Positions 5,787 through 20,000 of a stretch of DNA of 20,000 nt are shown here, piece after piece. Numbering within the stretch: the first letter of the stretch is position 1; every line of letters begins with the position of its first letter. Origin of the DNA: an uncultured virus (IMG/VR IMGVR_UViG_3300031963_000096) (Duplodnaviria; Heunggongvirae; Uroviricota; Caudoviricetes); the IMG/VR virus record IMGVR_UViG_3300031963_000096; one strand, given 5' to 3'. The position numbers and the translations under genes were made by a program. The notes under the pieces are model-generated. The model was not told the origin of the DNA and did no database searches. It worked only from the letters and a program-made list of their open reading frames with translations.

Positions 5787-8700
5787 ATGACTATTCCTAT
5801 CATAACAAGAACGAATACCATTGATGAATGGCGAATTCAAACAAATTTGTCAGCTATAGAATTAAATAATTTAAAAGCTAACAATTATACAAAATCAAAT
5901 GGTACTTTAGAATTAGCTAACAACTCTGTACTTTTAATAAGTGCAAACGGTACCGCACTCCAAGTTTCAAATAGTGCTTTTATCGGTAGAAATTTAGCAG
6001 TAACAAATAACGTTTCTGTTGGTGCAGTTGGTTCTGGTGTTGGTAATGTCTCTATAGGTAACTCTGTTTTGATTGCTGGACCCGGAGAAGCAGTTAACGT
6101 TTCAAATAGTGTTTATGTTGGTGGCAATAGCAATGTTAGAGGCAACGTGTATGCGAACAATGCAGTTGTCAATAATTCTGTTTATGTTGGTGGCACCGCT
6201 AACGTTGCTGGTATTGTTACACTATCAGGAACAGGTAAAGTATTGGAAGCAAATACTGGAACTGTATATGTTAATAATGCATATCTAACTACTGCAACAC
6301 TAGATCAAGCAAACGTTGAATTGATCTATGCTCTTGAAGCTAAAATTGACAACCTTTCTGATATTGCTTCTGCTGTAATTGGTATTTTGCGTGTAACAAC
6401 AGGTAATATTTATTATCTAACATCGAACACTTTATATGCTAATACTGGAACGATCAGAGATTTTGTTGCAAACAGCACAGGTAATGTAGTAACACTTATA
6501 TCAAATGTTGCAACAATTAATACCGCAACTATTGGTAACTTAAACGCAACAAATGGTACGATTATCAATGGTAATGTAGTAACACTTATATCAAACAATG
6601 CTACTTTAAATACATCTACTTTAGTTAATATAACAGTAACTAACGCTGCAATTGCAAATGCCGTTATTTCTTCGGCTGCAATTACGACTGGTCAAATTAC
6701 AAATGGTACAATTACAAATGGTACTATCATTAATGGTAATATAGTTACTTTAATTTCAAATAGTGCAACACTTAATAATTCTACATTGTTAAGTTCAAAT
6801 GTTGTTTCTGCAAATATTATAAATGCTAATGTTTCTGGTAATGTAAACTTTACCAATGGATCAACATTAAGATTTAATTCTGGATCAGCAAATGATGCTC
6901 TTGTTGTAGATTCAGGTATAACCTCTTTACAGACTGTCGTTGTTGAAGGAAACTTAACTGTTGCTGGAGTATTTACTCAAACAGGTAATATTAATTTTGA
7001 AACAGATAGATTCATTTTCAATGCAAATACACCTGACAATAAAGATGCGTTGATTGTTAATAATAGAATTTACGGAAATAATGCACAGATTGTTTGGAAC
7101 GAAACCAATGATCGATGGGAAGTTTCAACAGGTAATACTTGGACAACAACTTATAAGATTTTAGATGGCGCAGACATTTATACAGGTGTTGATTCTGATA
7201 GTACAACACTTGTAGCTTCTGCGAGTGCTGTTAAATTTGCATATCAAGCTGGTGGTGTTGTAGCCGGTGGCTATGCTAATGCAGCTTATAGACATGCCAA
7301 TTCTGCATTTGTAAGTCAAAATACAACAGGTGTTTATGCCAATACTGGATATGCTCATGCAAATTCAGCACATGATGTGGCAAATTCTGCTTTTAGTGGA
7401 GTAAGTGGTACACATGCAAATGCGGCCTACAGACATGCAAATTCATCTTATGCACATGCAAATACGGCTAATGTATCTGCTCAAGCTGCCTTTGATGCGG
7501 CTAACAATGCTTTTGCAGCTGGTGGTCAATTTGCTTATAGACATGCTAATTCAGCACACGATATTGCAAACTCAGCTTTTGCTGGAACAACAGGTACTCA
7601 TGCCAACTCAGCATATTTTACTGCAAATACCGCTTTAACAAATGCTGAAATTGCTGACCAAAAAGCTGTAGCAGCTAATACTAGAGCCGCTTTAGCTAAC
7701 GTTCATGCAAATGCCGCATATAATTTTTCAAACACAATAAACAACTTTGCTTTTCATGCTTATACTCATGCTAATGCAGCGTTTGCTCGAGCAAATACAG
7801 GAATTACATCTACTGGAGGTACTATAACAGGTGATTTAACAGTTAATGGAACATTGAATGCTACTGGAGCTTCAATTTTTGCAAATGATATGAAAATTGC
7901 AGATGGAATTATAACACTTAATTCTGACATATTACAAACTGCATCACCAATTGAAAATGCTGGATTAGAAATAGATCGAGGCGCTTCACCTAATGTATTC
8001 TTTTTATGGGATGAAACTTCCGATAGGTGGAGATTTACAAATGATGGTACAAATTATCAAGACGTTGCAGGTCAAACAACAATTAATTCATCTTTAGCCG
8101 CATATGTACCTTTAGCAGGTGGAACCATGACTGGTTTCTTGACTCTGAGTGCAAGTCCATCAAGTGCGATGCATGCTGCTACAAAAGCTTATGTTGATGC
8201 TACAATAGGATCAGCAGACCTAACAAATTTAAATGCTTCAAATTTAACAAGTGGTACTGTTCCAGTTGCTCGCTTGAGTGGATTATATAATATCAATGTT
8301 AATGGTAATGCTAACTATGCAACAACAGCTGGATCTGCCACAAGTGCAACGACCGCTAGCACCGCTTCCAGTTTAAATGGTGGTAATATTCAAAACTGTA
8401 CTGGTTTCGCACAAAGTAGTGGAGCATTTTCAATGACCGGAAGTTCTTTCGGTGTAAATCCCTATGCACAATTTTATGGAGGCATAAGATCTTTTGCTGA
8501 TATAAATGCATCTGGAGCAAATATAACAGCAAGTACTTTTTATGGTAATTTAAGTGGAACAGCAACACGAGCTCTTTATGGTGACTTGGCAGAAAAGTAT
8601 CTAGCTGACGGCGAATACGATGAAGGTACCGTAATGGCCATAGGCGGCGAAAAAGAAATAACAGCAGCAACAATTGCCAACTTTAGAGCTCTAGGTGTAG

Positions 8701-8930
8701 TATCATTGAGACCTGCACACTTAATGAATGCTGATTTGGAAAACGGAACAATTGTTGCTTTAAAAGGTAGAGTTCCTGTAAAAGTTATAGGCAAAGTAAT
8801 CAAAGGTCAACCTTTAGGATTAAGTAACATAGCAGGAGTAGCAAGTGTTAATGAAATGAATTACTTTGCATTATCTCTGATAGATAAGAACGATGATGGT
8901 GAAGGTATAGTCGAAGCAGTTATTTTATAA
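5787..8930 (+). CDS. Tail fibre / fibrous virion protein (1047 aa) with C-terminal peptidase-G2-like intramolecular chaperone domain
   Basis: N/T/S/A/G/V-rich, with pentapeptide beta-repeats (ITNGT), ANxAY/FxH heptads and a GGTMTG.L.L...P....HAATKAYVD fibre motif. The C-terminal domain reads GDLAEKY.ADGEY.EGTV..IGGEKEIT...GVVS..PA.LMN...VALKGRVPVKVIG.V.KG. Confidence 0.8.
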   Translation: MTIPIITRTNTIDEWRIQTNLSAIELNNLKANNYTKSNGTLELANNSVLLISANGTALQVSNSAFIGRNLAVTNNVSVGAVGSGVGNVSIGNSVLIAGPGEAVNVSNSVYVGGNSNVRGNVYANNAVVNNSVYVGGTANVAGIVTLSGTGKVLEANTGTVYVNNAYLTTATLDQANVELIYALEAKIDNLSDIASAVIGILRVTTGNIYYLTSNTLYANTGTIRDFVANSTGNVVTLISNVATINTATIGNLNATNGTIINGNVVTLISNNATLNTSTLVNITVTNAAIANAVISSAAITTGQITNGTITNGTIINGNIVTLISNSATLNNSTLLSSNVVSANIINANVSGNVNFTNGSTLRFNSGSANDALVVDSGITSLQTVVVEGNLTVAGVFTQTGNINFETDRFIFNANTPDNKDALIVNNRIYGNNAQIVWNETNDRWEVSTGNTWTTTYKILDGADIYTGVDSDSTTLVASASAVKFAYQAGGVVAGGYANAAYRHANSAFVSQNTTGVYANTGYAHANSAHDVANSAFSGVSGTHANAAYRHANSSYAHANTANVSAQAAFDAANNAFAAGGQFAYRHANSAHDIANSAFAGTTGTHANSAYFTANTALTNAEIADQKAVAANTRAALANVHANAAYNFSNTINNFAFHAYTHANAAFARANTGITSTGGTITGDLTVNGTLNATGASIFANDMKIADGIITLNSDILQTASPIENAGLEIDRGASPNVFFLWDETSDRWRFTNDGTNYQDVAGQTTINSSLAAYVPLAGGTMTGFLTLSASPSSAMHAATKAYVDATIGSADLTNLNASNLTSGTVPVARLSGLYNINVNGNANYATTAGSATSATTASTASSLNGGNIQNCTGFAQSSGAFSMTGSSFGVNPYAQFYGGIRSFADINASGANITASTFYGNLSGTATRALYGDLAEKYLADGEYDEGTVMAIGGEKEITAATIANFRALGVVSLRPAHLMNADLENGTIVALKGRVPVKVIGKVIKGQPLGLSNIAGVASVNEMNYFALSLIDKNDDGEGIVEAVIL
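6480..6760 (+). repeat. Intragenic repeats: exact 26-bp direct repeat (6480-6505, 6570-6595), diverged third copy (6735-6760), tandem 15-bp ITNGT units
   Basis: ggtaatgtagtaacacttatatcaaa occurs twice, 90 bp apart. It encodes GNVVTLISN, with a third copy GNIVTLISN. Confidence 0.85.
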
Positions 8931-8949
8931 TCTAGGAAAAAAATAAATT

Positions 8950-10374
8950 ATGAATCAGCCTTTAAATTTTTATGCAAAAAAATCTATGAAAGGAAATCCT
9001 CATGTTTTTGATGATTACTTTCAATTGAGTGCTTTAACAATTACTGTAACGAGCGCATGTAATTTACATTGCGATTATTGTTTTGAAGAACATGAAAGTA
9101 GGTTAATAAAACCCGATGAAGTAGTTGACATTATTGATGTTGCATATAAGAATTTTAGAAAAAATAATCCTACTGGTTCAATGCCATTATCTTTTTTTGG
9201 TGGTGAACCTTTTATCGCATGGAAAACTATTCAAAGATGTATTGAACACGCTAAAGAAAAAGGTTATGATCTTTCTGTTGGCATAACAACAAACTTAACT
9301 TTGTTGACTGATGAACAAATGGAGTTCATTGATGAGAATGATATTGGTTTGTTAGTTTCAATAGACGGCACCAAAGAAGTTCATGATAGATTACGTGATA
9401 ATTCTTATGATGTTGTTTCTAAAAATGTCAAAAAACTAATAGACAATGGCATGAAAAGGTTAATAGAAGCTCGGATGACAGTTCCGCCAGGTGAATTTCA
9501 TAATCTTTTAGCTGGAGTTCAAAACATTTTTTCTTTAGGTGTTGATAACATTGCTCCTGTTCCTGTTACCGATCAAGTTTGGACTAAAGATCAAGTTAAA
9601 TTATTAGAAAATGAACTTGATAAATTGTATGAATGGACAATTTCAATATACGAAGATCCAAACAATAAAAGAAACATTAGTGTGAAAATGATTGATGATT
9701 ATTTGTTTCAATGCATACATGACGAATTTGATATGAAAGGTACACCTTGTAGTTTTGGAAGTAATAAATGGCTGAGTATAGGTCCTAGTGGTGAAATGTA
9801 TCCATGTCACCAAATACATACACGAAAAGATCAACAAGAATTGTTTTACATGGGAAATATTTTAAAAGGTGAAATACTTCCACATAGAATTTTAGGTCAG
9901 GTTTTGCCACATTCATGGAAAAAAGCTGACGATCCAGAATATACATGCGACACATGTGAGGCATATAATATTTGTAGAGGTTCTTGCCCAAGTGAAAACT
10001 ATGATTTAAATAAAGATTATTTAAAAACTCCAGATGAATGGTGTGATTGGGTTAGAATGTCAAAACGAATCACGAAAAAATACCAGAATCAACTTTTAAA
10101 TAGTAAAAATTTGAGAAATAAAAGATTAAATTCTATAAAACTAAATTTAGAGATTATGGAAATGATTGATAGGGTGAGAGAATATAATGTATACTCCCGA
10201 GAATTTCCTCTTGTTGTTCTTGATTTATATGAAAAAGTTTTAAGTTGTGAACATAATTTGTTACCTGGTTTTTCTGACTTATCAAAAAATAAATTAGCAA
10301 AATTTAGAGAACAACTAACACAAATTAGAGATGAATTAATTAAAAAAGAATCAATGCAAAAGGAAACAGTTTAA
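8950..10374 (+). CDS. Radical SAM/SPASM domain protein 1 (peptide/protein maturase-like)
   Basis: CNLHCDYC (CX3CX2C), FFGGEP, ITTN.TLL and VSIDG...HD..R. SPASM cysteines: PCSFG...GEMYPCHQ...CDTCEAYNICRGSCP...WC. Followed by a ~100-aa helical C-terminal extension. Confidence 0.95.
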   Translation: MNQPLNFYAKKSMKGNPHVFDDYFQLSALTITVTSACNLHCDYCFEEHESRLIKPDEVVDIIDVAYKNFRKNNPTGSMPLSFFGGEPFIAWKTIQRCIEHAKEKGYDLSVGITTNLTLLTDEQMEFIDENDIGLLVSIDGTKEVHDRLRDNSYDVVSKNVKKLIDNGMKRLIEARMTVPPGEFHNLLAGVQNIFSLGVDNIAPVPVTDQVWTKDQVKLLENELDKLYEWTISIYEDPNNKRNISVKMIDDYLFQCIHDEFDMKGTPCSFGSNKWLSIGPSGEMYPCHQIHTRKDQQELFYMGNILKGEILPHRILGQVLPHSWKKADDPEYTCDTCEAYNICRGSCPSENYDLNKDYLKTPDEWCDWVRMSKRITKKYQNQLLNSKNLRNKRLNSIKLNLEIMEMIDRVREYNVYSREFPLVVLDLYEKVLSCEHNLLPGFSDLSKNKLAKFREQLTQIRDELIKKESMQKETV

Positions 10375-10973
10375 TGGGTACCTCTGTACATCAATCACAA
10401 AATACGATCATCGAAAACGATGATTATAATCCAAATACTGAAAATGATGCTTGGAATATTCGAAGAAGATATGTTGGATTAGCTGCCATTTGGAGTAATC
10501 CAAACGCTGGAGATACTGGTTGTGCTAGAACGCAAACATATAGTACGTCCATAAGAGTTAGAAAATTTTCAGATGCTGGAAGACCTTATAGTGATGGTAC
10601 TATTCTTGGTCTTACTGTAAGACAGCCTGTAGACAATCAAGAAATTTTAGCTACAGATTTAGATAATGCAAGACGAATTATCAATGAAGGTGTTGCAGCT
10701 GTAAATCAATCTTTTTTAAATTCAACAACTGGATTTATTAATCCAGCTTCTGGGTATGCAAGTCGAGATCAAGAAATTTTAGCTTCACACATCAATAATT
10801 TAATTAATACTATTATAATCACAGAAACTAAGTTAGACATATACAATTCATATTATGATGGAGCTGACTTATGTCAAAGAAGTTGCCAAATACAATGTCA
10901 GACAGCATGCCAAACAAGTTGTCAAGGATGTAATACTTCACAATGCCACAATCAAAAATGTGGAGTGCATTGA
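10374..10973 (+). CDS. 199-aa protein with C-terminal Cys-rich CQxx-repeat tail; putative radical SAM substrate/precursor
   Basis: Ends CQRSCQIQCQTACQTSCQGCNTSQCHNQKCGVH (8 Cys in the last 33 aa). The start overlaps the rSAM1 stop (TAATG), and the gene sits between rSAM genes. The N-terminal part has repeated QEILA.....N motifs. Confidence 0.85.
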   Translation: MGTSVHQSQNTIIENDDYNPNTENDAWNIRRRYVGLAAIWSNPNAGDTGCARTQTYSTSIRVRKFSDAGRPYSDGTILGLTVRQPVDNQEILATDLDNARRIINEGVAAVNQSFLNSTTGFINPASGYASRDQEILASHINNLINTIIITETKLDIYNSYYDGADLCQRSCQIQCQTACQTSCQGCNTSQCHNQKCGVH

Positions 10974-10974
10974 T

Positions 10975-12300
10975 ATGTTTGATGTAATTTCCAAAGTAAC
11001 ATTAAAACTCAGCACATATTGTAATTTAGCTTGTGAGTATTGTCATCAAATGACTGATGATAAAAAACATCATGTTACTTTTGAAAAATATAAAGAAATG
11101 TATGACTTTTTACTAAAGACAAATTTGTCTGATGTTGTTGAAGTAACTTTAACTGGTGGAGAAATTTCCCTTTTAGAAGAAGAATATGAAACAGCTGTAA
11201 AATGGTTCAGAAAGATTGAAAGACAGAGAGATGTAAAGTTTACTTTTGCTGTTGTTTCAAATGGTACAAATATAAAACAATTATTTAAATTAATAAAACA
11301 AGGTGATTTAAATCCTAAAAGAACAACAATTAGTTGGGATGGATTATACACCATGTCAAAGAGTCGTAAAAGTAAATTTGAAAAATTCAATGATGATTTC
11401 TTTAAAAATGTTGTTACTGAAATTGGCCAAAGTCCATGGGCAAAGCAATTAAACATTACACATGCAATAACACCTACTACCATCCCTTATTTACACGATA
11501 GTTTAGTTTTTGCTTTAGATGCTGGTGTAAAAAATTTTGGTTTTTATTATATACATGAAGCCGATTATAGCGACAAAGAATTTTTAAAAATTTATGATGA
11601 ACAAGTTACAAAATTAGGTGAAGAATTTGTAAAACGATATGAAGATTTGTCAACAAGATTTGTTTATTATAATTGGCAATTATTATATGCTAAAGAAAAT
11701 TTGCCAACAGATAACAAAGAATTAATGAGAGCCACAACTCTTTGTCACAAATTAGGAAGAACGGTGCATTTTGACCCATTAGGTGACATTTATGGTTGTA
11801 TTTATTTTGGAGACCATAGAGCTCTAAAACTAGGTGATTTGGAAAATGGTAATATAGATAAAACGAAATATCAAAAATTTAGTGATCAATACTTCGAAAT
11901 GCCAGGTTGCAAATTAGATAGTTGTGGCAATTCACATTGTTTTGAATGTCCAGCAAGTAACTATGTACATAAAGGAAAAATGGCGAATAGATTTAGTAAC
12001 ACATGCGAAATGTTATCTATTGAAAAAAGAATTTACTATGATTTAAAACCTAAACTTAAAATAGATGAATTTGATAAAGCTTTTTATTGGATGGAAGAAG
12101 ATCATTTAGAACAAAAAAACTATGATGATAAGTATGAAACATATTTAAATGATATAGTAGGTATACCTTTAACTGAGGAAGCTTATGTTGAAGATGATGA
12201 GTACTCAAATAGATTAAGTCCAACGTATAAAAATGTTGTTACTTGGATGAAAAAAACTCCTAAGAAAAAAGAATTTACTCTAAATTTAGAAACCATATGA
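10975..12300 (+). CDS. Radical SAM/SPASM-like protein 2 (441 aa)
   Basis: Likely start is the ATG at 10975, 1 nt after the precursor TGA (MFDVISKVTLKLSTYCNLACEYC). Motifs LTGGEI, VSNGT and ISWDG are present. Auxiliary-cluster cysteines: LCHKLG...GDIYGCIY...CKLDSCGNSHCFECP...TC. Confidence 0.93.
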   Translation: MFDVISKVTLKLSTYCNLACEYCHQMTDDKKHHVTFEKYKEMYDFLLKTNLSDVVEVTLTGGEISLLEEEYETAVKWFRKIERQRDVKFTFAVVSNGTNIKQLFKLIKQGDLNPKRTTISWDGLYTMSKSRKSKFEKFNDDFFKNVVTEIGQSPWAKQLNITHAITPTTIPYLHDSLVFALDAGVKNFGFYYIHEADYSDKEFLKIYDEQVTKLGEEFVKRYEDLSTRFVYYNWQLLYAKENLPTDNKELMRATTLCHKLGRTVHFDPLGDIYGCIYFGDHRALKLGDLENGNIDKTKYQKFSDQYFEMPGCKLDSCGNSHCFECPASNYVHKGKMANRFSNTCEMLSIEKRIYYDLKPKLKIDEFDKAFYWMEEDHLEQKNYDDKYETYLNDIVGIPLTEEAYVEDDEYSNRLSPTYKNVVTWMKKTPKKKEFTLNLETI

Positions 12301-13586
12301 AAAAGAAGTTTTCAAAAATAGGTTCTAATATCAATCATGTTTATCTTATGATGACAGAGGCTTGTCCTTTAGATTGTGAATACTGTTACATAAAAGATAG
12401 AAAAACAAAAAACAATGTAAGTGATGAAGATATTGATACTTTAATAAATGCTTTTGAGTATCATACTCCTAGAATAATTTATTTTGGTGGAGAACCTTTA
12501 CTCGAAGTTGAACATATAAAAAGAGTTACTGAAAGATGGAAACATAGGTGTCAGTTTCAAGTTATAACTTCTGGATTAGTAAACTTCGATAAATTTGTTG
12601 ATGAAGTTTATTTACCTAATAAAGAAAAATTTGATATTCAAATATCTTGGGATGGTTTCGAAAATGACAACCGAGTTTTAAGAAATGGTAAAAATAAACA
12701 AGATAGAGTTATGGCCACCATATTAAGTACCTTAGAAATGGGTATACCTCTACAAGTAAGAAGTGTTATAAATGACGAAAATGTTGATAATCTCGTTAAG
12801 ATTTATGAGACCTATAGATATTTAAAACTTCAGTATCCACATTTGACGGGTGATATAACTATTGCTCATCAAAAACATTTCAAAGATGATTTTCCAGAAA
12901 AGTTTAGGCAACAATTTAAAACAACACTTGAAATAATTGAAGATGATATTAATAATGGTATAGAGCCTTATTTTCCATTAGAGTACATGAAAAAAATGAC
13001 TAGTGCGTTAAATGGAAGACATGTTAGTTCGTGTGATGCTGGAAATTATTTGGTTTTAAAACCAAGTGGCGCACTATATCCTTGTACAATATTAAGTCAA
13101 CAAAATGATGATGTTGATTTTATCATGGGTCATATTTCTGATAGAGACTTAGATTATGATATGATGGATAAAATGCGAAAGCCAAGTGAAGCTGAAATTT
13201 GCAAAACTTGTGGAGTTAGATCTGTATGTGATGGTGGTTGTCGATATGAAAGAGTTGCAAATTATGGTAAAGATTGGATGGGAAAAGTTTGTGGTTTTAC
13301 CTGTGGTGTTTCTGAAGCCTGGTTTCATGAAACAAAAAATTGGGTTTTAAACATGAATGAAAATGTTTATGAAAAAGTAATTCAGAGATTGGTATTATTT
13401 AATAATTGGGTTATTCATTATGATACTGGTCACCATGACGAAGCAAAAAAACACCAGACTTTTGATAGAGAACAATTGAAATTAGGTAAAAGATTAGATT
13501 TTTATAATTTTTATAAAGACACTACTGAGAAAAAGATTATACCTATTTTGCCATTGAGTAAAGAAAAAAATGTCTTTGTCACCTAA
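12297..13586 (+). CDS. Radical SAM/SPASM domain protein 3
   Basis: CPLDCEYC, YFGGEPLL and ISWDG. SPASM: SCDAG...GALYPCT...CKTCGVRSVCDGGCRYE...VC. ATGA overlap with the upstream stop. Confidence 0.95.
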   Translation: MKKKFSKIGSNINHVYLMMTEACPLDCEYCYIKDRKTKNNVSDEDIDTLINAFEYHTPRIIYFGGEPLLEVEHIKRVTERWKHRCQFQVITSGLVNFDKFVDEVYLPNKEKFDIQISWDGFENDNRVLRNGKNKQDRVMATILSTLEMGIPLQVRSVINDENVDNLVKIYETYRYLKLQYPHLTGDITIAHQKHFKDDFPEKFRQQFKTTLEIIEDDINNGIEPYFPLEYMKKMTSALNGRHVSSCDAGNYLVLKPSGALYPCTILSQQNDDVDFIMGHISDRDLDYDMMDKMRKPSEAEICKTCGVRSVCDGGCRYERVANYGKDWMGKVCGFTCGVSEAWFHETKNWVLNMNENVYEKVIQRLVLFNNWVIHYDTGHHDEAKKHQTFDREQLKLGKRLDFYNFYKDTTEKKIIPILPLSKEKNVFVT

Positions 13587-14802
13587 TTTTAAAAAATCTG
13601 TTGATGGTATCGCTAAAGTAGGTAGACAAAATAAAAGATTTGAAATATTTTTAAATCTTACCTATAAATGCCCTTTGAGATGTACTTATTGTTATGTGGA
13701 TTACAATAGGGCTCCTCCAATGACACAAGAGCAGGTTGATTATGTCATTGAAAAACTTCTCATTGAACCTAAAAAAACTGATATAAAGCTTGTCACCTTT
13801 TTTGGAGGTGAACCTGCTTTAGAGATGGACATCATAGAAAATACCTTAGACAAATATTCTCATGTTGAGAAAATAAAAAATGTTCATTTTGGAATCATAA
13901 CAAGTTTTTCTGTCAATCAAGATAGACTTTTAAAGTTACAAAAAAAATATCCAAAATTAGAAATAGCTATAAGTTTTGATGTTGATATGAAAGAAAGAGT
14001 CTTTATCAATAAAAAACAATTTGATTTATTAGGTGTGGCTAAGAAAAAATTTGATATTGATTTAGAAAAGATGAAAGAAAATAAAAATAATATTTTCTTT
14101 AATAAAGTTATTACAGGGCAAGAAACAGATTTATTTGGTGATTTGAAATGGCTTCACGATACTTATAGGGACTATAAATTATTTTATAGTTTATCGTTTA
14201 CGAAAACGCCTAAGTTTCCTTTTCATCCAGAAGGAAGAATAGAGGAAGGTTGGTATAAATATTTAAACTATATTTTTTCTAAGTATTTAACTAATGAAGT
14301 AGTATTTTTACCTATGTTAGTTTTACAATACTTAGATCGTTATTGGAAACAAAAAAAGAACACAGCCACTTCTGGTTGTGGTTTGGGTGGTGAATATTTT
14401 ATTGATAGTAATGGGACAGTTAGTCCATGCAGTATAAGTCATCATAGAACAGATTTAATGCTTTATCATGAAGGAAAGTTTCTCGACAATAATGAACACT
14501 TTCAAGAATTAGAAGATAGTTATTGGAACAATCCTACATGTCAGAAGTGTGAATATAAAGGTTTTTGTCCTGGCGGTTGCATGGTTTTTAGGTATACTGA
14601 AAATAACGATTACAATATACCAAATGAGGGCCAATGTATTTTGATGGAAGAAATTTTTAAGGCCTATGACAGATTTTTAAATGAACGTACAGAAAAAGAA
14701 ATAACTGAGTTAACTTTTATTCTAGCAAAAGATTTACAGAAATATCATTCGTATTGTCATCATGATGATGAACATATAGATTTACAAGCAATTTATAACT
14801 AA
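13570..14802 (+). CDS. Radical SAM/SPASM domain protein 4
   Basis: CPLRCTYC, FFGGEPAL and ISFD. SPASM: GCGLG...GTVSPCS...CQKCEYKGFCPGGCM...QC. 17-bp overlap with the upstream gene. Confidence 0.95.
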   Translation: MSLSPNFKKSVDGIAKVGRQNKRFEIFLNLTYKCPLRCTYCYVDYNRAPPMTQEQVDYVIEKLLIEPKKTDIKLVTFFGGEPALEMDIIENTLDKYSHVEKIKNVHFGIITSFSVNQDRLLKLQKKYPKLEIAISFDVDMKERVFINKKQFDLLGVAKKKFDIDLEKMKENKNNIFFNKVITGQETDLFGDLKWLHDTYRDYKLFYSLSFTKTPKFPFHPEGRIEEGWYKYLNYIFSKYLTNEVVFLPMLVLQYLDRYWKQKKNTATSGCGLGGEYFIDSNGTVSPCSISHHRTDLMLYHEGKFLDNNEHFQELEDSYWNNPTCQKCEYKGFCPGGCMVFRYTENNDYNIPNEGQCILMEEIFKAYDRFLNERTEKEITELTFILAKDLQKYHSYCHHDDEHIDLQAIYN

Positions 14803-14813
14803 GTGAGAACATT

Positions 14814-15965
14814 ATGCACATTTTTTTACCTGAATTAATATACAATGAAATAAAAGAAAATGATAAATTTAAATCTATTTACAATTCTTTAAATGATTTT
14901 TTTGATACAAAAACTAAGTGTTTAATTGATTACAATAATGAAATCAATAATGATGATTATTATAAAGATTTGAATGATTTTTTAAAGAAAAATTTATCAG
15001 AAAAAAATAATAAAATATGGAATTGTTTTAAAGTCTGTGTAGATTTTGATGAAAAAGATAGTAATAAAGATTGGGAAAAAATTAGAGAAGTAATTGATTC
15101 GTGCAAAAAAGACGATGATTTAGAAGTAAAATTGTATGCGTACTATATGGAAATGGCAAATACTGCTGATCATGAATCTGAAAAATGGATAGAAAATGTT
15201 GAAGAATCTTTAAAATTGTTCGATCAAAATAAAGATAAAGTTTTTGATACAAGATTGTATACAAAATTTTATTGGGATGTACACGAAAAAAATAATTTTT
15301 ATTTAAAAAATAAAAAAGAAAAAGATTTAATTGATGAATTTAAAAATTATCAAAAATTAGATTTAGAAACTAAAGATTTTATATTTTCAAAACATAATGA
15401 TACATACACTAAAGATATAATTAACCATAAAACAATATATACTGCAATTCAATTCTGGCATGCAAATTTAAATTCGGCGGAAAACGATCAAAAAAGTGCT
15501 GAATATGTTCTAAAAAAATTAGATGATAAAATTGCAAATTTAGATTTCAAATATAATTCTTTTAACATGCATTTAATGGAATGGCTATGGTTAAATTTTA
15601 AATGGCATTTAGATAGAGATAATATTCTAGCGGTTGATGTGGTAGAAATTATGATACAAATTGTTGAAGAAACATTAAAAAATAAAAATTACATGATAAG
15701 ATCTTTACGTCATCATAATTTTAATTATATTTCTAATTTTTTAATTTTAATGCAAAATTTAAATGAAGTTGAAAAAATCTTTGAAAAAGTGTTAGTAAAC
15801 TATGAAAGAAAATTAAACAAATTAAATTGGACAGAAAAAGAATATAAAGTTATTATTGATAATGATCTATCAATTACTAATAACTGGTGGAACGAAAGAA
15901 GTAGAACACTCAACAATTACAAAGAAAATATGATTTCTTCTATAAAAAATAAATTTTTAGGATAA
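14814..15965 (+). CDS. Hypothetical alpha-helical protein A (383 aa), paralogue of the next gene
   Basis: Long ORF in very AT-rich DNA, K/N/E/D/L/I/F/Y-rich. Starts MHIFLPELIYNEIKEN and ends IKNKFLG. No recognisable catalytic motif. Confidence 0.8.
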   Translation: MHIFLPELIYNEIKENDKFKSIYNSLNDFFDTKTKCLIDYNNEINNDDYYKDLNDFLKKNLSEKNNKIWNCFKVCVDFDEKDSNKDWEKIREVIDSCKKDDDLEVKLYAYYMEMANTADHESEKWIENVEESLKLFDQNKDKVFDTRLYTKFYWDVHEKNNFYLKNKKEKDLIDEFKNYQKLDLETKDFIFSKHNDTYTKDIINHKTIYTAIQFWHANLNSAENDQKSAEYVLKKLDDKIANLDFKYNSFNMHLMEWLWLNFKWHLDRDNILAVDVVEIMIQIVEETLKNKNYMIRSLRHHNFNYISNFLILMQNLNEVEKIFEKVLVNYERKLNKLNWTEKEYKVIIDNDLSITNNWWNERSRTLNNYKENMISSIKNKFLG

Positions 15966-15968
15966 AAA

Positions 15969-17174
15969 ATGTTAGTTTGGCTACCAGAAAATATCTATCA
16001 ATTAGTAAAAAATAATTCTGAATATATTTCAATAATTGAAGAATTAGAAAAAGTTTCTTTTGACGGAGAACTTTCTTCTACTGTACCTGAAAATACTCCA
16101 GAAACATGGCCTATCTATAGAAAATTATATTCATTTTTAAATTCTGTTGAGAAAAATGAGTACGAACAGATTACTTGGGAGTTGAATAAAATTCTATTTG
16201 ATAAGTTGTTTCTCGAAATAGATAATGAAAATTTTTCATATACAGACAAATTATTATCTTTAAAAGATACCTTAGTAAACATAAAAAATAAAATAGATTC
16301 TTTAGATGATTCTGTTATAAAAAACCTTCTAAAAATTAATTTTTTACAATATGAAATTTTAGCTTTGTCTGAAAATAATAGTTTTTTTTCTGCTGATTTG
16401 ATTGCAAAAAGGCAAGAATTGTTATCAACATTTGATTCGATTAAAAAAGAAAATGTGACTTATGATTCTGTAATAGATTATTTTGAAAATTATTTTAATC
16501 TATACATGGTAAATTTAATAAAAAATGAAAGTTTGGTGGTAAAATCTTTTAATGATTTACAATTAAATTTTAATAAATTTAGAATGGATCTTGATTTAAA
16601 AATTGATGAAGTAAAAAATTCATCAATTGAACACAACTACTTTAAACTTTTTGATGTTCTAAATTATTTAAAATTGTACTTTATAAACTTTTATTATGAA
16701 AGTTTTATACCAATGGTTAATTTAACTGATGATGAAAAATTGATAATTGACAAAAATATTGTAAAATATGCAAAGAGTGTAGATTTTAAATACAAAAATT
16801 TCAATATTATTACCTTACATTTTTATTGGATAAGAATGAAAATGTTTTTTTCATTTAAAGACTATGATCAGTTTTTAAAAGTTTTTAATGAAATGTGTCT
16901 ATATTTAAAGTTAAATTTAGATAATAATAAAAAAGATGTGATTAAATCTATAATTTTTCATACGCAATCTGACCACATAGATTTTTTAATTTTGATCAAA
17001 GTTTTATTAGAATTAGATGAGGAAATGAGTAAATTTTTTAAACAAGAAAAACAATTAGAAAATTTAAATTTATCTGAAAAAGATATTACTTTGATAAATG
17101 CAAATAATGATAACTATAAAAATTCATCTTACTTTTTTGATATTAATTTCATAAAGAATAGGTTCTATGGATAA
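15969..17174 (+). CDS. Hypothetical alpha-helical protein B (401 aa), paralogue of the previous gene
   Basis: Starts [16 protein letters not shown] and ends IKNRFYG. Lies 3 nt after the previous stop and overlaps erpA by 8 nt. Confidence 0.8.
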
Positions 17175-17550: not shown

Positions 17551-17883
17551 TTGGCCGAATTTGTCGAACTAACCCTCGAACAGGGTGCAACTTTCAATAC
17601 AGTAATTAATGTAAATGATGGTACCGGCTCTCCTCAAAATCTAGTTGGATACACGGCACGCTCAATGATGCGCCGGTCCTACTATACTTCCTCATCCAAA
17701 GAATTTCAAGTTTCTGTTTCAACACCAGCCTTAGGTGAAATAACCATGTCTATGTCTGCGGCCAATACTGCAAATTTGACTCCAGGAAGATATGTTTATG
17801 ATGTGGAGATAGATGATGGTGCAGGTGAAGTTACAAGAATTTTTGAAGGTATTATTACCGTTTTGCCTAACGTAACGAGATAA
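17551..17883 (+). CDS. Conserved small phage structural protein (Ig-like / baseplate-upper-protein-N-like), TTG start
   Basis: AGGAG precedes the TTG. Pattern L.LEQGATF......D..G...NL.GYTARS.MRRSY...G.IT.S.SAA.TA.L.PGRYVYDVEI......V.RIFEGIITV.PNVTR is typical of T4-like aquatic phage structural regions. Confidence 0.8.
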   Translation: MAEFVELTLEQGATFNTVINVNDGTGSPQNLVGYTARSMMRRSYYTSSSKEFQVSVSTPALGEITMSMSAANTANLTPGRYVYDVEIDDGAGEVTRIFEGIITVLPNVTR

Positions 17884-17885
17884 AA

Positions 17886-18086
17886 ATGGCTATCACAGTA
17901 CAAGTAAAACCTAGAAAAACTACTATATCTTCTGTAACTGTTGCAAGAACAGCTAACCTCAATCTTGCACAAATTAATAATGTTGATATTATTACGCCTG
18001 CAAATAATCAAGTTTTGATGTATGAGACTGGTACTGAACGTTGGGTAAATAAAGAAATTCCAACAATTAGTGGCGGTACATTCTAA
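17886..18086 (+). CDS. Small tail-fibre-associated protein (66 aa)
   Basis: Contains the L..INNVD......NQVLMY......WVN fibre-type motif and ends ISGGTF. Lies 2 nt after the upstream stop, and its own stop overlaps the next ATG. Confidence 0.7.
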   Translation: MAITVQVKPRKTTISSVTVARTANLNLAQINNVDIITPANNQVLMYETGTERWVNKEIPTISGGTF

Positions 18087-20000
18087 TGACAATAATTCAG
18101 ATAAAGTATTCAACAGCGAATACTGAACCAGCTAATGGACAACTATCTGCTGGAGAATTAGCTTACTCTGAAGTATCTAAAAAATTATTTATTGGTAATG
18201 ATTTTGGTACTGCCAATGTTATTGGTGGCCAAAAATATATTGACCTTCTTGAATCAAATACTTCTTTTGCATCACCTGGTGCAATTGTAATTCGTGATTC
18301 TCAAGGTTCTTTTTTTGGAAATGTAATTACAGCCAATTCTTTTGTTGGTAATCTTGCTGGAAATTTAGATGGTAATGCTGCAACAGCTTCACGACTAGCA
18401 AATAACTTTACAATTACATTGACTGGTAATGCAAACGGTAATGTAAGTCTCGATGGTTCTTCAAATGTAACTTTAAATGTTACACTTGTAAATACATCGG
18501 TTACAAGTGGTTCATACGGCAATACAAGATTTATTCCTACATTTACTGTTGGATCAGATGGTCGTATTACAGGCGTAACAAATGTCGCTATAGACTTTCC
18601 AGATTCAGCCGACTTTTCTCAAGATTCTTATAATCAAGCAAACTCTGCATATGCACATGCTAATGCAGCTTATCAAACTGCTAACACAGCAATTTACTCT
18701 AATGCACATTCTAATGCATCATTTAATGTAGCAAATTTAGCTTTAACTACTGCAAATTCAGCATCTTCATATGCAAATAGTGGTTTTGCGGTAGCTAATG
18801 TTGCAAATATTAACGCAATTTCGGCATCATCTTATGCCAATTCAGCATATCAAACAGCCAATTCTGCAAGTTCGTATGCAAATAGTGCCTTTATGGCCGC
18901 AAATACAGGATTATTATCATTCAATACTGCAAATGCGGCTTTTAATACTGCAAATACAGCATTAACTACTTCTATTAATACTGCTTTATTGTTAGTAGAA
19001 ATATTTGCTAATGTCACTTCGACCGAAGAATCTATTGCAACAGCTGGCAGATATGCTAATTCAGCTTATCGACATGCAAATGCTTCATTTAATACGGCAA
19101 ATACTAAGTTTAATACTTCTGGTGGTACAATTTCAGGTGATGTTAATGTTACTGGTAATCTTACAGTTACAGGAAATGTAACTTATGTAGCAACAAATCA
19201 ATTGAATTTAGGTGATGCAGTTATAACTTTAAATGCAGATTTAGGACAAGCTGCTTTACCAACAGAAGATGCTGGTATAGAAATAGAACGTGGTAGGTAT
19301 CAAAATTCTTCCATACTTTGGAACGAAACTTTAGACCGGTGGCAGTTTACTGATAATGTTTCAACAAGTAACATAGGTTCGGCTGCGGCTGAAGTCTATG
19401 CTAATGCGGCTTATGATGCCGCCAATGCTGCATATGCTTTTGCTGGTCAAGCGACTATTGCTGTTTCAGGTTCAGCTTTAGCTGCTAACGCTGCGGGGTC
19501 ATATGCTAATGCGGCATTTTTAAGAGCCAACGCTGCATTTAGTGGTACAACTGGAACACATTCTAATTCTGCATATGCTCATGCTAATGCAGCTTTTGCG
19601 GCGGCAAATTCTGCAACACCTCAAGCCGTTCAATCAGCTTTTGATAAAGCCAATTCTGCTTTTGATGCTGCAAATAATGCTTTTATTGCAGGTGGTCAAA
19701 TTGCAGGATCATATGCTAACTCAGCATACATTCAAGCCAATGCTGCTTTTAATCGTGCTAATTCTGCCAATAACTTAGTATTAGAAACCAGAACACATGC
19801 TAATTCTGCATTTAGTGAAGCAAATAATGCTACGTTGATTGGTCTTGCTGCTTTTGCTCTTGCAAATAGTATTCAGTTTTCTCAAGGTACTGAAATTGCA
19901 ACATATGCTTGGGTCAATAGTAATGCAGCTTATAATCATGCAAACGGAGCTTTTGTACAAGCTAATACCGCTAATGTACAATCTGTAGTATCGGGAATAT
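18086..20000 (+). CDS. Long tail-fibre-like protein with Mtd-N-like N-terminal domain; 3'-truncated (>638 aa), absent from the supplied ORF track
   Basis: ATG at 18086 (TAATG overlap). Manual translation gives MTIIQIKYSTANTEPANGQLSAGELAYSEVSKKLFIGND...GNAATASRL...GSYGNTRFIPTFTVGSDGRIT...ANSAYAHANAAY..., with no stop before the window end (...ANTANVQSVVSGI). IQIK.S....P...L..GELAY......LFIG resembles the major-tropism-determinant N-terminal domain. Confidence 0.88.
   Translation, partial: MTIIQIKYSTANTEPANGQLSAGELAYSEVSKKLFIGNDFGTANVIGGQKYIDLLESNTSFASPGAIVIRDSQGSFFGNVITANSFVGNLAGNLDGNAATASRLANNFTITLTGNANGNVSLDGSSNVTLNVTLVNTSVTSGSYGNTRFIPTFTVGSDGRITGVTNVAIDFPDSADFSQDSYNQANSAYAHANAAYQTANTAIYSNAHSNASFNVANLALTTANSASSYANSGFAVANVANINAISASSYANSAYQTANSASSYANSAFMAANTGLLSFNTANAAFNTANTALTTSINTALLLVEIFANVTSTEESIATAGRYANSAYRHANASFNTANTKFNTSGGTISGDVNVTGNLTVTGNVTYVATNQLNLGDAVITLNADLGQAALPTEDAGIEIERGRYQNSSILWNETLDRWQFTDNVSTSNIGSAAAEVYANAAYDAANAAYAFAGQATIAVSGSALAANAAGSYANAAFLRANAAFSGTTGTHSNSAYAHANAAFAAANSATPQAVQSAFDKANSAFDAANNAFIAGGQIAGSYANSAYIQANAAFNRANSANNLVLETRTHANSAFSEANNATLIGLAAFALANSIQFSQGTEIATYAWVNSNAAYNHANGAFVQANTANVQSVVSGI

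Follow-up and report, generated by a model that had tools for sequence, protein, structure and literature searches.

An operon around a cysteine-rich tail

In this study we analysed a stretch of 20,000 nucleotides, hereafter the window, from an uncultured tailed virus (IMG/VR record IMGVR_UViG_3300031963_000096). The window corresponds to bases 19182-39181 of the 62.6-kb record and lies in that module of a T4-like myovirus which encodes its baseplate and tail fibres, as indicated by PHROG matches to a baseplate hub, a tail tube, a gp5-like lysozyme, wedge subunits and several fibre proteins. Within this module, an operon of about 8.5 kb encodes, in this order, a radical S-adenosylmethionine (SAM) enzyme (r1), a protein with a cysteine-rich C-terminal tail that we consider the probable substrate of the operon's enzymes, three further radical SAM enzymes (r2, r3 and r4), two related proteins (u1 and u2) and an ErpA-like iron-sulphur (Fe-S) carrier. 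Stops and starts of these genes overlap, the stop codon of r1 sharing one base with the ATG of the tail-bearing gene, and the genes from r1 to the carrier form one translationally coupled operon.

The tail-bearing gene is an open reading frame (ORF) at positions 10374-10973 of the plus strand, whose translation is a 199-residue protein ending in ...DLCQRSCQIQCQTACQTSCQGCNTSQCHNQKCGVH. Cysteines stand at residues 167, 171, 175, 179, 183, 186, 191 and 196, with a glutamine after each of the first five, and the spacing runs through four CX3C steps (C167 to C183), then CX2C, CX4C and CX4C, to a G-x-H terminus. The C167 codon begins at base 10872, and the TGA stop occupies 10971-10973. The cysteine positions, their spacing and the Cys-Gln units had been listed in an initial annotation made from the letters alone, and the translation confirms all of them. 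The protein has nine cysteines in total, eight of them in the tail. The ninth, C61, lies in the body within the motif 'GCAR' (window 10554-10556), is kept in most of 31 close homologues and might pair with one of the tail cysteines. An overlapping ORF in another frame (10855-12300) was rejected as an artefact of the longest-ORF rule, as r2 starts at the ATG at 10975 and its orthologues likewise start right after the tail stop. At a cysteine frequency of 1.1%, which is an assumption near the values of the record's ORFs, the probability of at least eight cysteines in 33 residues is 2.3e-9. The other structural ORFs of the record contain 0-0.9% cysteine, and a comparable cysteine run was found in no other real ORF of the 62.6 kb. 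We nevertheless consider conservation a stronger argument than this chance probability for a real tail.

The tail is the most constrained part of the protein

A homologue search over 5.8 billion proteins returned 31 close relatives of 125-217 amino acids (aa), which are 34-85% identical overall. Their alignment has 23 invariant columns in the tail and an average column identity of 48%, which makes the tail the most constrained part of the protein. Our alignments also show that the window protein and its counterparts at five other phage loci (L006-L010) share a C-terminal module of about 68 residues, composed of a helix, an aromatic-aromatic-Asp motif and the cysteine ladder, despite differing bodies. 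A 68-column profile of this module, run over 1.84 billion representatives, yielded 125 clusters at 50% identity (76 of them at an expect value (E) <=1e-10) with proteins of 71-950 aa, and the module stands nearly always at the extreme C-terminus. The initial annotation had staked its reading of the tail as a modified core on the cysteine spacing being conserved in homologues, and the exact spacing is indeed kept in 31 of 31 close homologues and, as C-x3-C-x3-C-x3-C-x3-C-x2-C-x4-C-x4-C at the C-terminus, in 90 of the 125 clusters. At least four CX3C units with a different ending occur in 19 further clusters, a short form with two or three units in 11, and other or internal tail forms in five.

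Among the 90 canonical tails, all eight cysteines and the histidine after the seventh are present without exception. Glutamine follows the second, third, fourth and fifth cysteines in 86, 88, 78 and 88 tails, respectively, the substitutes being Met, Glu and Leu; Asn or Asp stands three residues before the last cysteine in 84, as (N/D)-Q-x-C, and Gly follows the last cysteine in 88. The terminal histidine is a feature of the window's tail class. Three relatives, P0120, P0088 and P0128, carry enlarged arrays of 36, 13 and 14 C-(Q/E)-x-x units, respectively, ahead of the usual ending, and the sequence of these arrays suggests a length-variable, rod-like element. A 198-aa relative that is 99% identical to the window protein (P0001) ends in ...CNTSQCQKNMKQL; this end looks frameshifted, with the last two cysteines gone, and could stem from faulty assembly or represent natural variation. 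The segment C186-x4-C191-H192 (window 10929-10946) forms a rare CX4CH motif resembling c-type haem attachment sites and is invariant in all 90 canonical tails. Haem attachment at this motif was set aside as no cytochrome c maturation genes were seen, and a further objection is that T4-type assembly is cytoplasmic.

The module is also found on bodies of very different size. In metagenome loci the identical tail type sits on larger, unrelated bodies of 308, 420 and 552 aa, of which the 308-aa body carries a CBM5/12 domain that exceeds the Pfam cut-off at 36.7 bits, and the 552-aa body has sub-threshold F5/8 type C matches. A Pfam scan of 67 of the 125 proteins detected CBM5/12 in two (one over the cut-off) and Gly_rich_2 in seven (six over the cut-off). 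Two relatives in all have CBM5/12 at a score over the cut-off. The window protein itself matches no Pfam, PHROG or NCBIfam family. Two loci have tail-bearing genes in pairs: L015 (6639-10015) holds genes of 521 and 203 aa in one cassette with one ORF between them, and L026 (7809-8692) holds adjacent genes of 136 and 163 aa.

The family was also sought in deposited genomes and structures. In the phage genomes of INPHARED, megablast of the operon and tblastn of the window protein and of a GGWS-class relative gave no match, although the low-complexity filter of BLAST may hide the tail; r1 has only relatives of less than 30% identity there, Ralstonia jumbo phages among them. In prokaryote species genomes, 81 pattern matches were obtained and none was confirmed as a relative, and a PDB sequence search with the 68-column module gave nothing below E 1. 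In one freshwater metatranscriptome of the run index, the contigs hold 0.60 of the sampled words, which may be carried-over DNA rather than RNA. All 16 DNA data sets that contain the full sequence are flagged as possible sources of it, and none of them is counted as independent.

An AlphaFold2 (AF2) model of the window protein built with 62 sequences has a mean predicted local distance difference test (pLDDT) score of 80.4, with helices at residues 21-40, 93-114 and 137-155 and a helical bundle in the body at pLDDT of about 90. Block means in the tail are only 47-53 with 62 sequences and 39-46 with 31 sequences, and these model values weakly suggest a segment that does not fold on its own. A Foldseek search of the PDB with the body gave nothing at E<=0.001. 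A designed helical filament found by a wide fold search (best Z 8.7 and 9.3) was rejected, being below the level that is meaningful for helical bundles, and rows for rudivirus proteins appeared in BFVD at E 0.014-0.14. The best viral model match is BFVD A0A8S5UTL8, a 200-aa gut myovirus protein labelled 'Six-cysteine peptide SCIFF' (E 4.3e-5, template modelling (TM) score 0.48), a label which indicates that automatic annotation had already made the SCIFF association. A homotrimer prediction with three copies of the 199-aa protein scored 0.01 and carries no weight either way on oligomerisation.

Radical SAM genes adjoin the tail gene across phages

Linkage of the tail gene was assessed in 20 loci outside the window's phage (L006-L010 and L014-L028), among which L019/L020 and L023/L024 are near twins; L002-L005 are copies of the window's phage. 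Enzymes were called by Pfam and BLAST in L006-L010 and, in L014-L028, by a hidden Markov model built from the enzymes found here, with E <= 7.6e-23 and CX3CX2C in every case. The tail-bearing gene directly adjoins a radical SAM ORF in 19 of the 20 loci. The exception, L023, begins 32 bases before the tail gene, and its near twin L024 has the upstream enzyme. Orthologues of r1 lie directly upstream of the tail gene in nearly all loci (32-75% identical, 27% in L027 and L028), and r2- and r3-like genes lie downstream of it, with r2 orthologues 38-40% identical in L008, L009 and L010 and r3 orthologues 39-43% identical in L009 and L010. The r4 enzyme was seen only in the window, L006 (69%) and L022 (40%). 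Full tails occur nevertheless in loci where only r1-, r2- and r3-like enzymes were seen. This gives no support to the initial suggestion that the three spacing regimes of the tail could provide distinct sites for the four enzymes, and a scheme with one enzyme for each spacing regime was rejected. The four paralogues of the window are only about 18-25% identical to each other, whereas the orthologues of each of r1, r2 and r3 in other tail loci share 28-48% identity with it, indicating that r1 to r3 represent old, separately kept functions. When four related records were searched as a whole, each gave three to four radical SAM matches, which cluster close to the tail gene. In L014 an HNH endonuclease ORF (8427-9299; phrog_59, E 3.1e-28) lies between the tail gene and the next radical SAM gene, and L018 and L021 have similar-sized ORFs at this place.

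These results bear on one alternative, in which the tail is left unmodified and its eight cysteines and two histidines bind Zn or Fe, or become oxidised to disulfides once lysis has occurred, so that the C-terminus folds or oligomerises, while the radical SAM enzymes act elsewhere. The eight cysteines, the invariant histidine after the seventh, the terminal histidine in the window's class and the Fe-S carrier gene in the operon would all suit such a knot, and phage fibre tips that bind metal through histidine are known. It would not account, however, for the three radical SAM lineages found beside the tail gene in 19 of 20 loci from very different phages, nor for glutamines that are as conserved as the cysteines. 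The 62.6-kb record contains no other cysteine-rich candidate substrate, and AF2 with 62 sequences gives no confident mini-domain in the tail. We regard an unmodified knot as very unlikely.

The four enzymes resemble thioether synthases

All four enzymes exceed the PF04055 cut-off of 29.5 bits (Table 1) and carry CX3CX2C together with C-terminal cysteine motifs, which read CX2CX5CX3C in r1, r3 and r4 and take a variant form in r2. The SPASM model TIGR04085 (cut-off 27) is passed by r3 (48.8 bits) and r4 (43.9), and PF13186 stays below its cut-off of 21.5 in r1 (17.2 bits), r3 (18.1) and r4 (16.8) and is absent in r2. The best NCBIfam match of each enzyme is PapB NF047865, at 180.5 bits for r1, 96.7 for r2, 106.7 for r3 and 87.6 for r4 (cut-off 340). 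For r1 the next matches are QhpD (141.4 bits), a ScfB-related model (131.9) and the SCIFF maturase TIGR03974 (124.6), a model with a cut-off of 425 bits on which r2, r3 and r4 score 52.7, 58.3 and 44.0. On TIGR04115, r1, r2 and r3 score 84.3, 55.6 and 60.8 bits, and r2 scores 26.5 bits (E 3.5e-6) against TIGR04119 (CXXX_matur), all below cut-offs. The best solved relative of r1 is CteB (5WGG, E 6.2e-25), residues 25-360 of r1 aligning with residues 95-430 of CteB. With cysteine spacing conserved and the enzymes scoring best against ranthipeptide-type thioether synthases, the tail is most plausibly what the neighbouring radical SAM/SPASM enzymes act on, as the initial annotation had suggested.

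Since r1 aligns with CteB only from residue 95 onward, the N-terminal recognition region of CteB type is missing. Residue 25 of r1 aligns to position 96 of TIGR03974, and in each of the four enzymes the radical SAM core begins no further than about 30 residues from the N-terminus. From their sequences, r1 to r4 thus appear to lack an N-terminal recognition element for peptides that are made by the ribosome and modified after translation (RiPPs), although a non-canonical recognition domain could lie elsewhere.

Other radical SAM chemistry on the tail has to be weighed against thioether formation, such as formylglycine or dehydro-residues of the kind made by anSME-like enzymes, C-C or C-O cross-links, epimerisation or sactionine (S-C-alpha) links. 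The scores are far below the equivalog cut-offs, and other models match as well: anSME (79 bits for r1, 71.8 for r3), DynA (94.8 bits for r1) and cyclophane and sactipeptide maturase models, all below cut-off. Four paralogues as divergent as these could also carry different chemistries. It is PapB, however, that heads the matches of all four enzymes, followed for r1 by the models just named and by the CteB structure, and the conserved tail residues are cysteines and methylene-bearing side chains rather than the aromatics of cyclophane- and darobactin-type systems. Chemistry other than thioether formation seems to us unlikely.

The operon and its neighbourhood

The coordinates of the operon and of the parts of the tail-bearing protein are given in Table 1.

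Table 1. Features of the tail operon, in window positions.
Feature	Position	Strand	Basis
rSAM1 (r1), 474 aa radical SAM/SPASM	8950..10374	+	PF04055 63.9 bits
Putative substrate, body, residues 1-131, part of predicted helical bundle	10374..10766	+	AF2
Putative substrate, conserved helix and aromatic-aromatic-Asp motif (..NSYYDGADL) before first Cys	10767..10871	+	alignment across window and L006-L010
Putative substrate, Cys/Gln tail C167-H199 and stop	10872..10973	+	translation and conservation
rSAM2 (r2), 441 aa radical SAM, variant C-terminal CX4CX4CX2C	10975..12300	+	PF04055 38.4 bits
rSAM3 (r3), 429 aa radical SAM/SPASM	12297..13586	+	PF04055 48.1 bits
rSAM4 (r4), 410 aa radical SAM/SPASM	13570..14802	+	PF04055 42.6 bits
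u1, 383 aa all-helical, companion of cassette	14814..15965	+	relatives in 13 other loci (jackhmmer)
u2, 401 aa, u1 paralogue	15969..17174	+	27% identical to u1 (BLASTP); joins u1 family (jackhmmer)
A-type Fe-S carrier (ErpA/IscA-like), 111 aa	17167..17502	+	NF010147 165.1 bits (cut-off 117); PF01521 77.2 bits

Searches of Pfam, PHROG and NCBIfam assigned the protein u1 to no family; the structure rows listed for it in the Atlas resemble TPR proteins, with a TM score of 0.59 by query, which we take only as a lead. G+C content falls to 0.21-0.22 over u1 and u2 (window 15001-17000), against 0.30-0.39 in the neighbouring fibre genes, and this may reflect a different origin or different constraints. 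Fibre-like proteins on both sides of the operon (window 5787-8930 and 18086-19999) share many repeats of the (Y/F)-x-H-A-N-(A/S)-A-(Y/F) type, and an ORF between the operon and the second fibre (17551-17883) matches the tail-fibre-assembly-type PHROGs 1084 and 3304. Outside the window, G000:C1 encodes two RCC1-repeat-like proteins (50496-52223 and 57293-59005) and a 2-oxoglutarate-Fe(II) oxygenase-like protein (54482-55201) downstream of the fibre genes. An RCC1-like protein is also found upstream of the cassette in L022.

Scans of the operon proteins against Pfam, PHROG and NCBIfam detected no protease or exporter families. This matters for a second alternative, in which the 166 residues of the body serve as a long leader, from which the modified 33-residue tail is cleaved to act as a free ranthipeptide-like signal, toxin or host-manipulating peptide. 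The enzymes are of RiPP-maturase type, SCIFF cores are likewise highly conserved cysteine-rich stretches (PMC8326336), a 2025 paper on cyanophages assigns a phage radical SAM maturase to antibiotic synthesis (PMC12801897), and the structurally similar 200-aa viral protein A0A8S5UTL8 bears a SCIFF label, all of which would agree with release. The 'leaders', however, would span from 40 to more than 900 residues, some with carbohydrate-binding or glycine-rich domains, and our alignments show no conserved cleavage site of Gly-Gly type before the first cysteine. Because no protease or exporter was detected, the enzymes seem to lack an N-terminal RiPP recognition element, the bodies are large and domain-bearing and the cassette lies in structural modules, we favour retention of the tail on its protein, and release of a free peptide appears quite unlikely.

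Proposed mechanism and its weight

Taken together, the extreme constraint on the tail, the portability of the module, its near-obligate adjacency to three radical SAM lineages and the likeness of these enzymes to thioether synthases lead us to infer that the tail is an enzyme substrate. We propose, with a probability of roughly 0.55, that the surrounding radical SAM/SPASM enzymes staple this protein-borne tail by thioether links and that the tail is retained on a probably virion-associated protein. In such a mechanism, the ErpA-like carrier would help to load the many [4Fe-4S] clusters. The enzymes would dock on the helix and the aromatic-Asp motif before the ladder, possibly aided by the helical-repeat protein u1; as far as sequence can tell, the helix and its YYD-type motif may act as a docking or leader-like element. 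Each enzyme would then abstract a side-chain hydrogen via a 5'-deoxyadenosyl radical and join a cysteine sulphur to the carbon of a nearby residue, and the product would be a ladder of thioether (ranthionine-type) rings.

The likeliest acceptors would be the conserved glutamines next to the second to fifth cysteines, in a QxxC or CxxxxQ register, and the Asn or Asp three residues before the last cysteine, a literal NxxC. Both registers would fit known precedents, Q-x-x-C being built like NxxC and also fitting the terminal (N/D)-Q-x-C, and C-x4-Q corresponding to the i+5 register first reported for CteA. The tail would stay in place as a covalently stapled knot that resists reduction, at the C-terminus of a protein which would be associated with virions and would probably bind the host, and it would provide oxidation-independent covalent cross-links for a particle protein that is assembled in the cytoplasm.

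Several observations weigh against this proposal. Glutamine is not among the ranthionine acceptors in the accessible text of PMC8326336 and PMC13692751, and its substitutes in the tail (Met, Glu and Leu) all favour helix formation, so that the pattern could reflect structure instead of chemistry. The eight cysteines and two histidines could bind metal. All enzyme scores are below curated equivalog cut-offs, and the reaction type is therefore extrapolated. Two records with no more than three radical SAM matches near the gene are fragments, and thus the required number of enzymes is not fixed. As regards a virion location and a host-binding role, the cassette lies in a baseplate module in the window, next to head genes (gp23 and prohead protease) in L007 and, in the jumbo-phage locus L017, next to genes for RNA polymerase beta subunits; in the Pfam scan described above, F5/8 type C was found in three proteins, always below the cut-off, and 55 of the 67 relatives had no domain at all.

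A bolder form of the thioether proposal is that phages of several lineages build a Cys-Gln thioether ladder, with an undescribed ranthionine acceptor, into the C-termini of particle proteins by means of three to four specialised enzymes without a RiPP recognition element and a helical docking protein, the covalent cross-links forming in the reducing cytoplasm and surviving outside the cell. In that case a staple made by radical SAM enzymes would be described in a virus particle for the first time, and we put this reading forward tentatively, as a possibility that is somewhat more doubtful than probable.

If our proposal is true, viruses use RiPP-type radical chemistry to harden or shape their own proteins rather than to make free peptides, which would widen the known range of post-translational modifications of virions. 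It would also explain the clusters of radical SAM genes with an Fe-S carrier in some aquatic T4-like and jumbo phages, which in the accessible parts of the sources have so far been read as metabolic or 'antibiotic' genes (PMC5332604, PMC12801897). The system would offer a compact, portable tag of 68 residues, three to four orthogonal stapling enzymes and possibly a new acceptor residue, glutamine.

Comparison with known systems

The initial annotation described the tail as a SCIFF- or ranthipeptide-like core with a CteB-type Cys-to-Thr thioether. Our results agree with this description in kind, as a ranthipeptide-like target of radical SAM enzymes, but place the tail outside the SCIFF family. 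The SCIFF model TIGR03973 (six_Cys_in_45, cut-off 50 bits) has no match to the 199-aa protein or to its last 43 residues (NCBIfam hmmscan, E<=1) and none in a six-frame search of the record (E<=10), and a protein of 199 aa, with relatives up to 950 aa, is far from the SCIFF length of about 45 aa. Its nine cysteines, eight of them in the tail, also depart from the six of a SCIFF peptide, and the enzymes score far below the cut-off of the SCIFF maturase model. Neither does a conserved threonine acceptor appear, as judged by sequence proxy only: Thr at tail position 11, the 'CQT' of the initial annotation, occurs in only 22 of the 90 canonical tails and is absent in L007-L010, where the tails read CQKTC, CQNRC and CQHGC.

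The CteB/CteA system nevertheless resembles the window system in its conserved cysteine-rich target, its CQxxC-type spacing and its adjoining radical SAM/SPASM enzyme, and a thioether from cysteine to a side-chain carbon is the expected reaction (PMC8326336). In CteA the SCIFF Cys-Thr thioether is formed between Cys32 and Thr37/Thr34, and the acceptors published for ranthionine links comprise Thr, Asp, Asn and Glu (PMC8326336). It differs in that the window target is the C-terminus of a 199-aa protein encoded by a phage, with three to four enzymes instead of one, in that Thr acceptors are not conserved in the tail, and in that r1 lacks the N-terminal region of CteB.

The closest enzyme by score is PapB, the best NCBIfam match of all four window enzymes. 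Its substrate PapA, the precursor of freyrasin, also carries repeated short cysteine motifs that are turned into a ladder of small thioether rings with six Cys-Asp links (PMC8326336). The repeat in the window is C-Q-x-x, whereas that of PapA is C-x-x-x-D, and L-Gln was not processed by PapB in the substrates reported as tested in the accessible text of PMC12373016. The streptococcal NxxC system, NxxcB/NxxcA, offers a likeness in register, the acceptor standing three residues before the donor cysteine (Asn20-Cys23; PMC8326336), and the tail has (N/D)-Q-x-C before the last cysteine in 84 of 90 cases and Q-x-x-C four times. Unlike the tail, NxxcA forms a single ring in a short peptide, and no NxxcB model appears among the matches listed for the window enzymes. 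Further thioether motifs described are ACAGM, CAVD and CPLVL (PMC13692751).

The CXXX-repeat system, with target model TIGR04114 and maturase models TIGR04115 and TIGR04119, shares with the window a cysteine at every fourth residue, here in four consecutive CX3C steps, beside a radical SAM/SPASM enzyme. To our knowledge there is no experimental work on this system, and a literature search for 'CXXX repeat' together with radical SAM found no paper. The alignment to CXXX-repeat precursors that the initial annotation had suggested gave no match of TIGR04114 to the protein or the tail (hmmscan, E<=1) or in the record (E<=10), and the window enzymes score far below the maturase cut-offs. The Pfam 38.1 family for this system, PF27846, occurs in 52% and 23% of the members of two Atlas clusters that are mostly viral and lie near the query, which we take as a lead.

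A protein-sized substrate has precedents in QhpD/QhpC and CrpC/CrpA (PMC13692751, PMC8326336). In a protein subunit that stays whole, QhpD joins Cys to Glu through an S-C-gamma link, and CrpC modifies CrpA, a cysteine-rich protein of 28.8 kDa (PMC13692751). Both systems use a RiPP recognition element and a leader (PMC13692751), and such an element is absent at the N-terminus of r1. Their hosts are also different, QhpC being a subunit of a periplasmic dehydrogenase and CrpA a methanogen protein, both of cellular organisms, and the word 'phage' occurs 0 times in PMC13692751.

The genomic setting has its nearest parallel in the T4-like environmental phages of Nishimura et al. 2017, in which an A-type carrier occurs together with up to 12 radical SAM genes (PMC5332604). 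These genes were treated there as Fe-S-related auxiliary metabolism, and the accessible text of PMC5332604 mentions no cysteine-rich substrate or virion link. Our literature search, with subscription-only papers and supplements lying outside it, brought up no paper in which radical SAM enzymes modify a phage structural or Cys-ladder protein, and no description of thioether stapling for virus proteins. What is known from peptide natural products is the thioether chemistry itself, and what appears to be new here, judging from the genes and their products, is a protein-borne Cys-Gln ladder together with a multi-enzyme phage cassette.

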